This document shows, one piece after another, positions 40,500-64,000 of a stretch of DNA of 64,000 nt (within the stretch, counting starts at the first letter, position 1; every line of letters begins with the position of its first letter). The stretch is from Patescibacteria group bacterium (GTDB lineage Bacteria > Patescibacteriota > Minisyncoccia > UBA6257 > Colwellbacteraceae). Position numbers and translations under genes: made by a program. A model generated the notes under the pieces. The model was not told where the DNA came from. It worked only from the letters and a program-made list of their open reading frames with translations, and ran no database searches. Location: the NCBI GenBank assembly GCA_022705565.1, contig JAKJEF010000001.1:11748-75747 (forward strand), written 5' to 3'.

Positions 40500-40529
40500 A
40501 ACCCCTCCCCGGTTCATCGGGGAGGGGTT
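40500..40529 (-). terminator. rho-independent terminator of rnpB
   Basis: Minus strand: AACCCCUCCCCG-AUGAAC-CGGGGAGGGGUU followed by UUUAUUU. Confidence 0.7.
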
Positions 40530-40857
40530 GGCAATCCATAAGCCGGATTCTGTTTGGACGATTATTTATCTAGGCCCTCGATCGCTCTCGGGCTCAAGCG
40601 ACTCTCCCCATTCGGGGCGCGGTCTTGCACTCCACAAGGATTTAGCCGTTTCACTTCCGTCTTTTTATCCCTATAACGGAATTAGACCATCGAGCTTGGG
40701 ATTGGGTCTTCCCTCGCCTTTCGGCTTGGGACGTCACTGCTCGCACCTCTTGCCTTACGGCAGCCAGCTTTTAACTGGTGTGTTTCCGCCTTATCAGCGG
40801 AAAGAGTCCGGACTTTCCTCTCTGTTTGTTGAAACAGAGCAATCGTCTGAATTACCG
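40530..40857 (-). ncRNA. rnpB: RNase P RNA, bacterial type A (compact, about 330 nt)
   Basis: Minus-strand transcript contains GAGGAAAGUCCGGACUC (P4 5' strand consensus GAGGAAAGUCCGGGCUC), a GUGAAA GNRA loop region, CCUAGAUAAAUAAUCGUCCAAACAGAAUCCGGCUUAU (compare E. coli ...CCUAGAUGAAUGACUGUCCACGACAGAACCCGGCUUAU) and P1 pairing GGUAAUUC/GGAUUGCC. Confidence 0.85.
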
Positions 40858-40862
40858 ATCAG

Positions 40863-54019: not shown

Positions 54020-54550
54020 TTATTCGTCGATCTCCCCGAGTTTTTCTTTGATTAGACGGTCGACTTCTTCGTTGAACTTGTCGACTCTTTTCTGCAACTC
54101 GTCCTTTTGCTTGAATTTTTGGTCTTCGGGAAAAGTGTTGATTATCTTTTGCGCTTTGTCTCTTTCGAGACGCATTTTTATCCGGTTTTCCTCGGCCAAT
54201 GATTTGACGAGTTTGGCGAGCTCTTCGCGCCGTTCTTCGGTGAGGCTCGGAAGAGCCACCCTGATGACAGCGCTGTCAGCGGAAACGCTCAATCCGGAAT
54301 TGTTCTGGTTGATGGCTTTTTCTATATTCGAGAGAATACTCTTATCCCAAGGGGAAATGATAAGCTCCCTTGGAGGAACGATATTGATGGTGGCGAGCTG
54401 GTTTATGGTCATGACGTCGCCGTAAGCTTCAACTTTGACGTCTTCGACCAAGGCTGGATTCGGCCGATTGGATCTGATCTTCTGCATTTCGGATTTAAGA
54501 AAAGCGAGGATATTCTCCGAAGACGATTGGAAATCTTTTATCGGGTCCAT
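54020..54550 (-). CDS. frr: ribosome recycling factor
   Basis: Typical RRF length and motifs (RSNRPNPALVEDVKVEAYGD...). Confidence 0.9.
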   Translation of the reverse strand: MDPIKDFQSSSENILAFLKSEMQKIRSNRPNPALVEDVKVEAYGDVMTINQLATINIVPPRELIISPWDKSILSNIEKAINQNNSGLSVSADSAVIRVALPSLTEERREELAKLVKSLAEENRIKMRLERDKAQKIINTFPEDQKFKQKDELQKRVDKFNEEVDRLIKEKLGEIDE

Positions 54551-55290
54551 GATGCGGCTTGAAGCTGAAGTTTTTTGTTGGTATTGAACTGTTCGATGAA
54601 ATAAAGCCGGTGGACGAGCGCCCGGATTTTTCCGTTGTTTTTCATTTTGTCTTTGTATAATTTCATGATTTCGGATTTGACGAAAGCGCGGTAGTCGGCC
54701 AAAGATTCAAGCTCCTCGGGCACCGTGAAGTTTTTCTCGGCGATCCGCAAAGCCAATCCCGGACGGCCGAAAGAGCTTTCGGCCGCGGCCTTGGCGACAA
54801 CAGAAGAAATTCCCTTTTCTTTTTCGAGCCAAGCCGAGATTTCATCGGCTTTGACGCGGCTGAAATAAATCTTTCTGAAGCGCGAAACAAGCGTCGGCAG
54901 AAGGGTGTCTGGATTTCTCACGATCATCACGATAAGCGATTTTTCCGGCGGCTCTTCGGCGATTTTCAAGAGGGCGTTTTCGGCCTGGTTGGTCAACGAC
55001 TCCGCTTCATCTATTATAACCGATCTCGCTCCGGAGTTCACCGGTTTTTCCGAGAGGAATCGTTTCAACCTTCTTACGGCGTCGATGCCGATCGAGTCTT
55101 TTTCGTCCGGCTTCACGATAAGAAGTTCGGTCAAGGTCCGGGAATCGGGCTCGAGGCGTTTGGCGATCGATTCGGCGAAAGAGAACTTTCCCGTCTCGGA
55201 TTCTCCGAAAAAGATGTAACTTCCCGAGAGTTCTCCCGCTTTCACGAGCCTGTCGAAAAACTTCTGCTGGCGTTCGTGGCCGATGATCAT
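54538..55290 (-). CDS. holB: DNA polymerase III delta' subunit-like AAA+ protein
   Basis: GSYIFFGESETGKFSFAESIAKRL (degenerate P-loop), IDEAESLT, ALLKIAEEPP, and the SRF motif. Confidence 0.65.
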   Translation of the reverse strand: MIIGHERQQKFFDRLVKAGELSGSYIFFGESETGKFSFAESIAKRLEPDSRTLTELLIVKPDEKDSIGIDAVRRLKRFLSEKPVNSGARSVIIDEAESLTNQAENALLKIAEEPPEKSLIVMIVRNPDTLLPTLVSRFRKIYFSRVKADEISAWLEKEKGISSVVAKAAAESSFGRPGLALRIAEKNFTVPEELESLADYRAFVKSEIMKLYKDKMKNNGKIRALVHRLYFIEQFNTNKKLQLQAASWTR

Positions 55291-56304
55291 CTAGGCGGTC
55301 TTGTTGAGTAAAGTCTTCTTGTAGGTTTCGAGATGATTCAGGATCATTCCCGATCCCTTGGCGACGCACAAGATGGCGTCCTCGGCGATATAGGATTCGA
55401 CGCCCAATATCCGCGTCAAAAACTGGTCGATGTTCCGCAGATCGGCGCCGCCGCCGGAGATGATAATGCCTTTTTCCATGATGTCCGCCACCAATTCCGG
55501 CGGAGTTTCGTTGAAAACATTCTGCACCGAGCCGGCGATTTCAAGCAGGAGCGGATTCAAAGCTTCGGCGATTTCGTTCGAATTGACGACCACGTCTTTC
55601 GGAAGCCCGGAAACCAGATCTCGGCCGCGGATCTCGAACTCCAAACGGGTGTTTTTGATGGGAACGGCCGATCCGACCGCGATTTTGGCCGCCTCGGCCG
55701 TCTGTTCTCCGATGGCCAAAGAATATTTCTTTTTGATGAAATCGATGATGGCCTGATCGAATTTGTTTCCGGCGATCCGGAGGCTAGACCAGCAGACAAT
55801 GCTTCCCAAAGAAATGACCGCCACTTCGCTTGTTCCTCCGCCGATGTTGACAGTCATGTTTCCCGAAGAAGAATTAATCGGAATTCCGGCTCCGAGAGCG
55901 GCGAGAAGGGGTTCCCTCACCACATAGGCGTTTTTGGCTCCGGCTTCGATGGCCGCGTTGATCACCGCCCGGCGTTCGGTCGGCGTGATTCCGGCCGGCA
56001 CCGAGATAACGACATCCGGTTTCACCAAATTGAAAGATCCGATCGCCTGGTTGATGAAATACTTAAGCATCGCCCTCGTAATGTAATAATCGGCAATGAC
56101 TCCGTCTTTCAAGGGCCTGTAGGCGGCGATATCTCCAGGGGTACGGCCGATCATTTCCTTGGCTTCCTTACCCACGGCTAGAACCTTGTTTTCCGGCAAG
56201 CTTAAAGCGACGATGGTCGGCTCGTTGATGGCAAAACCCTTTCCTGGAACAAAAACCACGGTATTCGTGGTTCCCAAATCTATCCCTATCTGCCTGGTTA
56301 ACAT
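55291..56304 (-). CDS. second MreB/Mbl-type actin-like protein
   Basis: IGIDLGTTNTVVFV...EPTIVAL and full actin-fold motifs. Clearly distinct from mreB at 50775..51818. Confidence 0.8.
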   Translation of the reverse strand: MLTRQIGIDLGTTNTVVFVPGKGFAINEPTIVALSLPENKVLAVGKEAKEMIGRTPGDIAAYRPLKDGVIADYYITRAMLKYFINQAIGSFNLVKPDVVISVPAGITPTERRAVINAAIEAGAKNAYVVREPLLAALGAGIPINSSSGNMTVNIGGGTSEVAVISLGSIVCWSSLRIAGNKFDQAIIDFIKKKYSLAIGEQTAEAAKIAVGSAVPIKNTRLEFEIRGRDLVSGLPKDVVVNSNEIAEALNPLLLEIAGSVQNVFNETPPELVADIMEKGIIISGGGADLRNIDQFLTRILGVESYIAEDAILCVAKGSGMILNHLETYKKTLLNKTA

Positions 56305-56366
56305 AGAACCATATTAGCTTAAGAAGATTCGGCTGTCTATCGGATGGCCGAGGAAAACGGTTATTT

Positions 56367-57146
56367 TCAAGTGAGTATTTTCGGGCCGGATTTCAAAATA
56401 ACGATGGTATGCTCGAATTGAGCCGCCAATCCTCCGCGCTTTAGCCGATAACTCCCGTCCGGAGCGGCTGCGATCTCCGGATAGCCGATGCAAAACATCG
56501 GCTCCAATGCCAAAACCATACCTTCTTTGAGAATAAGTCCGCTTCCGGGATCTCCGTAATTCTCGATCATCGGATCTTCGTGCGGCGCGAATCCCACTCC
56601 GTGTCCGCCCAATCCCTCAACAACGTTGAATCCGTAACGCAAAGCGGTTTTTTCGATAACCGAACCGATGTCTCCGAGGGTCCGGCCGGGTTTGGCGATC
56701 TTAATGGCGCGCATCAAAGCCTCTTCGGTCGCTCTGACGAGCAATTTGGTTTTCGGAGAGGACTTGCCAGCGATCACGGTAACAGCCGCATCCGTGAAAT
56801 AGCCGTTCAAGTTAATGCCGAGGTCGAGCTTCACTAAATCACCTGACTTGATGATGTAATCGTTCGGCACTCCGTGAACCACGGTCTCGTTTACGGAAAC
56901 GCAAACGCTTGCCGGAAAAGCCCTGATCGCTCCTTCGGGCCGGTAATTCAAGAAAGAAGGTTTGGCTTTGGCCGAGGCGATCAGTTCCCGGGAAAGGAGA
57001 TCGATCTCTTTTGTTTTCACGCCGGGCTTGACCGAAGATCTCAAACGCGCCAAAACCGCCCTCAAAATCCTGCCGGATTTGGCGAGTTCCTCGATATCCT
57101 CTTTGTCTTTAAGCCTGATTTTCAAAACCTTGCTATAGGCGGCCAA
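56367..57146 (-). CDS. map: type I methionine aminopeptidase
   Basis: VVHGVPNDYIIKSGDLVKLDLG...GHGVGFAPHEDP (metal ligands in context). Confidence 0.9.
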   Translation of the reverse strand: MAAYSKVLKIRLKDKEDIEELAKSGRILRAVLARLRSSVKPGVKTKEIDLLSRELIASAKAKPSFLNYRPEGAIRAFPASVCVSVNETVVHGVPNDYIIKSGDLVKLDLGINLNGYFTDAAVTVIAGKSSPKTKLLVRATEEALMRAIKIAKPGRTLGDIGSVIEKTALRYGFNVVEGLGGHGVGFAPHEDPMIENYGDPGSGLILKEGMVLALEPMFCIGYPEIAAAPDGSYRLKRGGLAAQFEHTIVILKSGPKILT

Positions 57147-57777: not shown

Positions 57778-59111
57778 TAGGCGATTTCGTATTCCCTGAT
57801 CTTCAGCTCCGAATCTATCTGTTTGGCGGTCTCGAGAGCCACGGAAACGACGATCAAAAGACCGGTGCCGCCGATCGTCATGTTGGCGACCTTGGTGATC
57901 CCTTGGACGATCGAAGGAAGAACGGCGATGATGCCGAGGAAGAGTGCTCCGAACAAAGTCAGTTTGGCGATGATCGAGTTCAGGTATTCGGCGGTGGAAG
58001 CACCCGGCCTGATGCCCTGGATAAACCCTCCGTTCCTTTGGAGATTTTTGGCTATTTCATTCGGCTCGAAAACGATGAAGGTGTAAAAATAAGTGAAGGC
58101 GAAAACCATGACAAAATAAAGGAGGCCGTTCCAAAGTGGATTGGCGAGAGTGGCTTCGATGAAATCGGCTACCTTTATCGCCCAGCCCGCGTCCAAAGAC
58201 CTAAGTCCCAGTCCGAGATACTGCGGCAACATCAATATGGAAATGGCGAAGATGATCGGAATAACTCCGGCTTGGTTCACCCTCAAAGGAAGATAAGTGG
58301 TCGATCCCCCGAAAACCCGGTTGCCCCGCACTCTTTTGGCGTAAGCCACCGGTATTTTCCGTTCGCCTTCGTTCACCAAAACGACTCCGGCGACGACAAC
58401 CAAGGCCAAAGCCAAAAGAATCAGAATCTTATCAATGCCTATGCCGAGAAAACTGCCGGTCGACTGATATCGGCCGATCATCATCAGAACCTGTCCGATG
58501 ACGGAACGCGGCAAGCCGCTAACGATTCCGGCGACGATAATCAGGGAAACTCCGTCTCCCAATTTCTGTTCGCTGATCATCTCTCCGATCCAGATCATGA
58601 TGAGCGATCCGGCGACGATAAAAAGCAGATTCAAAGCCAGGGCCGGCAATTCCATGGGAGCGATGATACCGCCGCCCTGGGCCGAAAGATATTTGAGAAA
58701 AGCGAATCCCTGGACCAAAGCCAGCGGAACCGTGAGATAACGGCCGAGCCGCTGGAACTTGGCCCGTCCGATGGCTCCGTTTTCGTAATAATATTCCTTG
58801 AGCTTCGGGAAAATCATAGTAAGGAGCTGAAGAATGATGGTGGCGGTGATATAGGGGCTCACTCCGAGCATGCCGATCGACAGTTTGTCCAAAGCACCTC
58901 CGGAAATAAGATTCAAATACCCGAAAATATTCCCAAAGAGAGCGCGGTTGACCGCTCCTTCCTCAGCCAGACCGGCTTTGTATTCAGTAATATCAACCGC
59001 CGGAATTGGAAGCATGACGATGATTCTCGTCGCCACGAGTAACAAAATCACCATAAGGAACCGGCGGCGGAGCTCCGGCACTTTCAGAAACTGAACGAAT
59101 TTATTTAGCAT
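57777..59111 (-). CDS. secY: preprotein translocase subunit SecY
   Basis: 10-TM topology. Conserved N-terminus ELRRRFLMVILLLVATRIIVMLPIPAVD and C-terminal motifs. Confidence 0.9.
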   Translation of the reverse strand: MLNKFVQFLKVPELRRRFLMVILLLVATRIIVMLPIPAVDITEYKAGLAEEGAVNRALFGNIFGYLNLISGGALDKLSIGMLGVSPYITATIILQLLTMIFPKLKEYYYENGAIGRAKFQRLGRYLTVPLALVQGFAFLKYLSAQGGGIIAPMELPALALNLLFIVAGSLIMIWIGEMISEQKLGDGVSLIIVAGIVSGLPRSVIGQVLMMIGRYQSTGSFLGIGIDKILILLALALVVVAGVVLVNEGERKIPVAYAKRVRGNRVFGGSTTYLPLRVNQAGVIPIIFAISILMLPQYLGLGLRSLDAGWAIKVADFIEATLANPLWNGLLYFVMVFAFTYFYTFIVFEPNEIAKNLQRNGGFIQGIRPGASTAEYLNSIIAKLTLFGALFLGIIAVLPSIVQGITKVANMTIGGTGLLIVVSVALETAKQIDSELKIREYEIA

Positions 59112-59295
59112 CGTGTTTGCCGCGAAGTTTTGGCAACCTTTGGATAAAGTCGCGTTCGGCCGGACGAATCTTGTGACCGGCTCTCGATTTCTGGCCTTTC
59201 TGTCCCCGGCCTCCGGTTTTACCCCGTTTTCCTCCGCGTCCGATTCTCTTTTTCTCCGGATTCTCGTGGGTTGTTCGCAAAAGATGTAATTGCAT
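59101..59295 (-). CDS. rplO: 50S ribosomal protein L15, unusually short (64 aa; N-terminal region only)
   Basis: GRGGKRGKTGGRGQKGQKSRAGHK matches the L15 Gly-rich N-region. The stop overlaps the secY start (ATGCTAAATAA). Confidence 0.6.
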   Translation of the reverse strand: MQLHLLRTTHENPEKKRIGRGGKRGKTGGRGQKGQKSRAGHKIRPAERDFIQRLPKLRGKHDAK

Positions 59296-59298
59296 GGA

Positions 59299-59769
59299 TT
59301 AAGAAGAAACTTTGACGGTTTTTATTTTTTTCAAAGCGGCGATGGTCGCCATGGCGGTCGTCAATTTATTCTTGGTGCTGCCAAGAGACTTCGCGGAAAT
59401 GTCCTTGATGCCCGAGAGAAGTAAAACCGTTCGGACCGCGCCTCCGGCCAAAAGTCCGTGTCCGGGCTTGGCCGGCTTGAGAAGCACTTCGGCGGCGCTC
59501 GCTTTGGCCTTCACTTCGTGTGGAATGGTACCGCCTTGAATTTTAACGCGGAAAAGATTCTTTTTGGCCGCGGTCCTGGCTTTTTGCACGGCCTGCTGAA
59601 CATCCAATCCTTTGGCCACACCGAGTCCGACAGACCCTTTGCCGTCGCCGACAACAACCGTTGCCCTGAATCTGAATCTCTTGCCTCCGGCGACTACCCT
59701 TGTCACGCGGCGCAGATCAAGCACCTGATCCTCGAATTCGTCCCTGATTGTTCTTCTGTAACCGTTCAT
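59299..59769 (-). CDS. rpsE: 30S ribosomal protein S5
   Basis: VTRVVAGGKRFRFRATVVVGDGKGSVGLGVAK. Only a 3-nt gap to rplO, so no rpmD is present. Confidence 0.9.
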   Translation of the reverse strand: MNGYRRTIRDEFEDQVLDLRRVTRVVAGGKRFRFRATVVVGDGKGSVGLGVAKGLDVQQAVQKARTAAKKNLFRVKIQGGTIPHEVKAKASAAEVLLKPAKPGHGLLAGGAVRTVLLLSGIKDISAKSLGSTKNKLTTAMATIAALKKIKTVKVSS

Positions 59770-62653: not shown

Positions 62654-62663
62654 GTTTTTAAAA

Positions 62664-63782: not shown

Positions 63783-64000
63783 TTATATGGATTTCCTTCT
63801 AAAGACGCGCCTCACGAGTCCGCCTTTGTCTTTCGGCTCTTCGAGACCGGTGCTCTTTTCCTCCAATTCGACTTTCGGCTTTTCGGATTTCGGTTTCTTT
63901 TCGGTCTTCGGTTTTTTCGACGTTTCTTTGGAAGTTTTTTCCGGGAAAACGAATTTGGAAACTTTGACTTTTTCGGATTCTTCGAGCTTCAAGAAAACAT
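63783..64000 (-). CDS. partial CDS (3' part; runs off the window end) with a K/E-rich tail; possibly the L22 C-terminal extension
   Basis: The frame is open to nt 64000, and operon position predicts rplV. The visible 70 aa are low-complexity K/E/P-rich, so the identity is unconfirmed. Confidence 0.3.
   Translation of the reverse strand, partial: VFLKLEESEKVKVSKFVFPEKTSKETSKKPKTEKKPKSEKPKVELEEKSTGLEEPKDKGGLVRRVFRRKSI

Follow-up and report, generated by a model that had tools for sequence, protein, structure and literature searches.

In 50S structures (Ban et al. 2000; Harms et al. 2001), ribosomal protein uL15 combines a globular domain at the surface with a long N-terminal extension that is buried in 23S ribosomal RNA (rRNA). 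The three protein contacts catalogued for it in the T. thermophilus 50S subunit, with uL4, bL21 and bL35, all run through an unstructured 'segment', residues 8-63 (Poirot & Timsit, PMC4881015), and E. coli survives the knock-out of any one of uL15, uL29 and uL30 (Shoji et al. 2011, as cited in PMC7782861). Bacteria of the Candidate Phyla Radiation (CPR) have no uL30, hence their uS5 and uL15 genes lie close together, and in some of them uL15 has been described as 'significantly smaller' and devoid of its carboxy-terminal region (Tsurumaki, Saito, Tomita & Kanai 2022, RNA 28:1041; PMC9297842); the main text of the same paper reports uL29 as lost lineage-specifically and names only some Peregrinibacteria. 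Here, we analysed a 64-kb stretch of DNA from an uncultured Patescibacteria group bacterium with a tiny genome (contig JAKJEF010000001.1; the whole stretch is hereafter called the window), which carries a ribosomal operon of the spc type where the uL30 gene (rpmD) is absent and the uL15 gene (rplO) counts 64 codons. We consider it very likely that this is the spc operon of a CPR bacterium whose uL15 has been cut to a functional N-terminal extension of 64 amino acids (aa), probably still residing in the 50S subunit.

Since Tsurumaki et al. reported both the absence of uL30 and a short uL15 in this group in 2022, the finding as such is counted as already known. Their short uL15 and the one in the window share a CPR host, the missing C-terminal region and the adjacency of the uS5 and uL15 genes without uL30. 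They differ in that the published form is covered by one sentence and a supplementary figure, whose main text does not say which lineages are concerned, how much was lost and how often, whether the remnant is under selection or whether uL29 loss is linked to it. Beyond it, the present analysis adds an extension-only remnant of 61-65 aa, strong purifying selection, a probable minimum of four losses, weak conservation of the C-terminal domain (C-domain) before loss, and co-loss of uL29. With full-length bacterial uL15 (RplO; TIGR01071, PF00828; ~140-150 aa) the short protein shares a homologous Gly/Arg/Lys-rich N-terminal extension and the position upstream of secY, but the ~80-residue C-terminal globular surface domain is absent and the short form falls below the family cut-offs. 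The uL30-less CPR ribosome (Brown et al. 2015, as cited in PMC9297842) likewise has no rpmD between rpsE and rplO, and the clade that includes the window (clade A, below) is additionally without rpmC, the uL29 gene, in the operon. Large-subunit surface proteins, uL29 and uL30 among them, have also been lost from the ribosomes of tiny-genome symbionts (Nikolaeva et al. 2021; PMC7782861), but uL15 is there one of nine ribosomal proteins that are never lost, while here it is kept and reduced to its extension. A literature search for a cryo-electron microscopy structure of a CPR ribosome found none; a review of 50S extensions (PMC2672003) does not mention L15, PMC4014445 holds nothing on the dispensability of rplO, and PMC12641178 mentions neither uL15 nor uL29.

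The rplO gene and its junctions with rpsE and secY

All coordinates are positions in the window, where rpsE, rplO and secY lie on the minus strand (Table 1). The gene order is rpsC, rplP, rpsQ, rplN, rplX, rplE, rpsN, rpsH, rplF, rplR, rpsE, rplO, secY, adk, map. An earlier note on this DNA had read that rpsE is followed by rplO without an rpmD in between, and that rplO stops after 64 codons, its TAA embedded in the secY start, so that roughly the C-terminal half of L15 would be lacking. Each of these readings was borne out. The rpsE stop codon (TAA, 59301-59299) is separated by just 3 nt from the rplO ATG at 59295, from which 64 codons encode MQLHLLRTTHENPEKKRIGRGGKRGKTGGRGQKGQKSRAGHKIRPAERDFIQRLPKLRGKHDAK, with the C-terminal end ...QRLPKLRGKHDAK. 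The rplO TAA (59103-59101) falls within ATGCTAAATAA, which also holds the secY ATG (59111). As secY is full-length and its N-terminus is normal for SecY, there is no space for an L15 C-domain. Each clade-A relative that was inspected likewise has its secY ATG nested within the final codons of rplO, and rplO occupies the same slot, between rpsE (or rpsE and rpmD) and secY, in ~70 related loci.

Reassignment or readthrough of the stop codon was considered and rejected: relatives end the short open reading frame (ORF) with TAA, TAG or TGA, and what follows downstream is secY, in another frame.

Identity and properties of the 64-aa product

The ORF is homologous to the N-terminal extension of uL15, which holds the GRG...GRG.KGQK.R motif region. 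The NCBIfam model TIGR01071 (rplO_bact) matched it at E=7e-7, between positions 2 and 62 of the 144 in the profile. Among solved structures, 38 distinct uL15 chains matched at E<=0.01, always along their first ~63 residues, such that residues 1-56 of the short protein align to residues 1-63 of solved uL15. A lineage hidden Markov model (HMM), built from 90 full-length relatives, gave E=1e-29 and stopped at position 61 of 141, having started at position 1. Thus ~57% of a normal L15 (~80 C-terminal residues) is absent, and with it everything from which the globular domain is normally built; the rplO product corresponds to the N-terminal part of uL15 alone. The 'segment' of residues 8-63 belongs to this N-terminal part and corresponds to the stretch kept in the 64-aa form. 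Of the 64 residues of the short protein, 20 are Lys or Arg and 10 are Gly; its net charge is ~+15, and 20% of its residues are hydrophobic. AlphaFold2, run with a 52-sequence alignment, returned mostly coil with two short helices (predicted local distance difference test 60; predicted template modelling score 0.21), and the protein has no autonomous predicted fold. A deposited record of the protein already carries the annotation 'uL15 family ribosomal protein'.

Compared with solved bacterial uL15, the short protein also misses ~4 residues of the conserved 'GFEGGQ' loop and, in the Gly-rich loop that comes first, ~2 more. Full-length Parcubacteria L15 shares at least the larger (~4-residue) gap (L003, L005, L006, L007), and the loop shortening appears to be a separate, older reduction of the extension.

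Searches for the missing C-domain and for uL30

A C-domain HMM was run on all six-frame segments of at least 15 aa in the 64-kb window and returned only noise in any frame (best E=0.23). Similarly, an L30 HMM built from fetched relatives found no uL30 in the window (best E=0.26). Every patescibacterial locus that was fetched misses uL30, while four non-CPR loci in the same scan have it; this agrees with the published survey (PMC9297842) and with the earlier note, which had called the absence a CPR hallmark.

The window is a small part of the genome, and the gene might be split or duplicated, another locus supplying the missing part as a C-domain or as a full-length rplO. A search for free-standing C-domains (word index; query, the C-domain of L007, the nearest full-length relative) gave 2 candidates, neither of which scored, and was uninformative; this explanation was therefore judged from the negative HMM search in the window, where a separate C-domain ORF, a possibility that the earlier note had raised, was not found. 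We regard it as very unlikely. Among 5.8 billion proteins every match above ~73% identity to the 64-aa uL15 is short, none being full-length, and the protein set lists NCBI among the sources of P0001, so that the other predicted proteins of this metagenome-assembled genome are probably included. Moreover, the C-domain is weakly conserved even in genomes that keep it (see below), and the whole-genome survey of Tsurumaki et al., as its main text presents it, takes the short proteins as the uL15 of those genomes.

Reproducibility and selection

When a universal protein is seen at half its length in one window, sequencing or assembly error is a classic cause, by which a frameshift or premature stop would have cut a normal rplO, and the earlier note had itself allowed for this. 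The probability of such an error is, in our view, negligible, given that (i) secY begins 11 nt before the rplO stop and leaves no sequence for the C-domain, (ii) neither an adjacent frame nor any other frame of the window continues it, (iii) four independent assemblies, made from different samples (GCA_029569665.1, JGI 3300010346, JGI 3300010365 and ENA ERZ772708), agree byte for byte along the 471-nt rpsE-rplO-secY junction, and (iv) the short form recurs, with differing stop codons, in dozens of protein clusters and in ten relatives at species level. The exact 64-aa protein was found on at least 15 contigs.

Among clade members, the ratio of nonsynonymous to synonymous substitution rates (dN/dS; pairwise Nei-Gojobori, where dS was unsaturated) ranged from 0.03 to 0.13, with synonymous sites near saturation, and the short rplO is thus under strong purifying selection. 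Twelve columns are invariant in the short uL15, mostly G, R or K, and the same motif positions are conserved in full-length uL15. These data bear on a further explanation, in which uL15 function has been lost and the ORF is either what is left of a decaying pseudogene or retained just for coupling to secY. It could draw on the fact that uL15 is deletable in E. coli, on the overlap of rplO with the secY start, and on the 55-aa version in the genome L064, from which the KGQKSR motif has been deleted internally as well. We hold it to be highly improbable all the same: dN/dS is low, the invariant G/R/K positions match those of full-length uL15, which a mere coupling ORF would not need, and the short form persists throughout a deep clade whose synonymous sites are saturated.

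Distribution and phylogeny of short uL15

A word-index protein search with the 64-aa protein yielded 160 matches at E<=0.001, all of 59-106 aa. These homologues share residues 1-59, up to LPKLRG, and then diverge in two forms: a 'minimal' form that ends within a few residues (59-65 aa; 24 of the 120 among the matches listed), and a 'tailed' form that goes on with a variable, Lys/Arg-rich tail of low complexity. The few entries that open a normal C-domain are partial proteins at contig ends. In an exhaustive HMMER search of 1.84 billion representatives, most of the matches listed beyond the clade were ~130-150 aa long and 60-70% identical over residues 1-60.

In order to obtain a sample unbiased by length, GTDB species genomes were scanned with the neighbouring S5, and the rpsE-secY slot was measured in 80 loci. 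L15 was 55-78 aa long in 9 patescibacterial genomes and 128-195 aa in the others. Two Mycoplasma loci with apparently short L15 (L077 and L078) proved to be an artefact of reading a code-4 genome with table 11 and were excluded.

Trees were computed by neighbour-joining with 100 bootstraps from the concatenated L14, L24, L5, S8, L6, L18, S5 and SecY (~1400 columns), after adding Liptonbacteria-, Tagabacteria- and GW2011_GWB1_45_7-type loci. They show that (i) the window groups with nine others in clade A (100% bootstrap; Colwellbacteria/Liptonbacteria labels), ten species-level genomes in all (the window, L001, L002, L004, L009, L014, L023, L081, L091 and L092), each with an L15 of 61-65 aa, so that the short form is lineage-wide, a point that the earlier note had marked for checking; (ii) the neighbouring clade B (L085, L057 and L008; 97% support) has a tailed L15 of 76-82 aa, and L007, its sister (84% support), retains a 128-aa L15; (iii) the Tagabacteria-type L083, with a 67-aa L15 (event C), and (iv) L064, with a 55-aa L15 (event D), are each nested (100%) within sets of genomes whose L15 is full-length. 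As a domain once lost does not come back, this topology implies a minimum of four independent losses of the C-domain in Parcubacteria. The source names of the homologues are Colwellbacteria, Parcubacteria or Patescibacteria, and the trees put the window inside Parcubacteria loci; judged by these sequences, the host is a CPR bacterium of the Parcubacteria/Colwellbacteria type.

Among the 90 full-length relatives, the N part shows a mean pairwise identity of 60%, with 19 of its 59 columns conserved at >=90%. The C part reaches 26%, and of its 81 columns 1 is conserved to this degree. The C-domain was therefore weakly constrained even before its loss, which fits repeated loss.

The L15 of event D (L064:4464-4631; Parcubacteria group bacterium Greene0416_39), seen in a single genome, has its KGQKSR deletion within GWGIKKRGTSQPRIRE and may be further decayed than the clade-A proteins.

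Absence of uL29

The usual rpmC slot, between rplP and rpsQ, is empty in the window (Table 1), and an L29 HMM from 52 relatives found no uL29 anywhere in its 64 kb (best E=1.9). The same slot is empty in 8 of the 8 clade-A genomes with upstream sequence, where the rplP-rpsQ spacers run from -8 to +35 nt. In L064, the genome with an independently shortened L15, rpmC is also missing from the slot and the spacer is 57 nt. L29 is kept in the tailed lineages and in the Tagabacteria-type genome. Full-length-L15 loci with usable upstream data (n = 46) all have L29 except L062, a non-CPR member of the Dehalococcoidia. Loss of L29 thus coincides with 2 of the 4 L15 truncation events. As the events are few and no structural contact between uL15 and uL29 is known, the pairing of uL15 truncation with uL29 loss can at best be read as hinting at a common trend of reduction.

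Two loci elsewhere in the sample show an apparent rplP/rpsQ overlap together with a blank L29 HMM search: L062 (Dehalococcoidia UBA4060; -19 nt), which has a full-length L15 and L30, and L075 (Magasanikiibacteriota; -10 nt), whose contig stops before L15.

A uL15 reduced to its extension

We propose that rplO lost the portion encoding the surface globular C-terminal domain, which would have become dispensable. The deletion would have moved the rplO stop onto the secY start. The remaining 64-aa peptide would most likely stay in the 50S subunit, where it would keep its rRNA and protein contacts and do the structural and assembly work of uL15, that is, rRNA stitching and participation in the protein network. 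The position of the rplO stop on the secY start suggests translational coupling of the two genes, by which secY would probably be translated.

Several points weigh against this proposal. The 64-aa protein scores 29.1 bits against the curated TIGR01071 cut-off of 77.95, and a Pfam scan gave no match at E<=0.01 (no Ribosomal_L27A domain), both because the C-terminal part is missing; in view of the Pfam blank, identity was set by NCBIfam, PDB sequences and the lineage HMM. An Rfam scan found no rRNA in the window, and thus no 23S rRNA carrying the binding site of the uL15 C-domain. The searches in genomic DNA cover 64 kb, and a separate C-domain or a second rplO could sit elsewhere. Finally, the trees are neighbour-joining trees of 8 linked proteins, not maximum likelihood trees of whole genomes.

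A wider proposition, to which we give an even chance, is that Parcubacteria have dropped the globular domain of uL15 at least four times, leaving the rRNA-threading extension as the indispensable part, and that the 50S subunit is here further minimised (no uL30, no uL29 and an extension-only uL15), a state not described as such.

On its own the finding matters little, the absence of uL30 being a textbook CPR trait and a short uL15 having been published. Nevertheless, the clade genomes would amount to a natural deletion experiment, suggesting that a universal ribosomal protein can work as a fold-less, highly basic peptide of 61-65 residues. Recurrent loss of the C-domain, sometimes with loss of uL29, bears on which parts of ribosomal proteins are ancient or essential and on the design of minimal ribosomes. 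There is also an annotation pitfall, as a uL15 under the Pfam and NCBIfam cut-offs could be scored 'missing' in completeness estimates or in concatenated-marker phylogenies.

Features of the locus and neighbouring genes

The features discussed above, together with those of the flanking DNA, are listed in Table 1.

Table 1. Positions of the features in the 64-kb window
Feature	Position	Strand	Evidence
secY, complete, 444 aa	57777..59111	-	Pfam SecY E=6e-94, profile positions 1-305 of 306
rplO 3' end / secY start overlap, 11 nt, ATGCTAAATAA	59101..59111	-	sequence
rplO, 64-aa uL15, Gly/Arg/Lys-rich N-terminal extension only (predicted)	59101..59295	-	TIGR01071, PDB uL15 chains, lineage HMM, dN/dS, AlphaFold2, composition
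Spacer TCC, 3 nt, rpsE stop to rplO ATG; too small for rpmD (uL30)	59296..59298	-	sequence read
rpsE (uS5), 156 aa	59299..59769	-	Pfam Ribosomal_S5 N- and C-terminal domains, E=1e-23 and 2.5e-21
rpsQ (uS17), 87 aa	62390..62653	-	Pfam Ribosomal_S17 E=7e-25
Spacer, 10 nt, rplP stop to rpsQ ATG; usual rpmC (uL29) slot empty	62654..62663	-	sequence
rplP (uL16), 137 aa	62664..63077	-	Pfam Ribosomal_L16 E=1.5e-43
uL22 gene, runs past the window end	63783-64000	-	
mreB, holB-like gene, frr	54020-57146	-	
Bacterial RNase P RNA class A, 335 nt	40524-40858	-	107.3 bits (Rfam)

Downstream (3') of secY-adk-map, the operon goes on with mreB, a holB-like gene for the delta' subunit of DNA polymerase III, and frr, an order also seen in the relative L091; the infA-rpmJ-rpsM-rpsK-rpsD-rpoA-rplQ block that is usual at such a position is not in that interval. 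At the end of the window, uL22 carries a C-terminal extension of ~60 aa, Lys/Glu-rich and of low complexity (...KETSKKPKTEKKPKSEKPKVELEEKSTGLEEPKDK...), and in identical relatives the protein is 173 aa long, against a typical ~110 aa. Elsewhere in the window, the score of the class A RNase P RNA is barely over the Rfam gathering threshold of 100, and its 335 nt are consistent with a reduced RNase P RNA of the CPR type.

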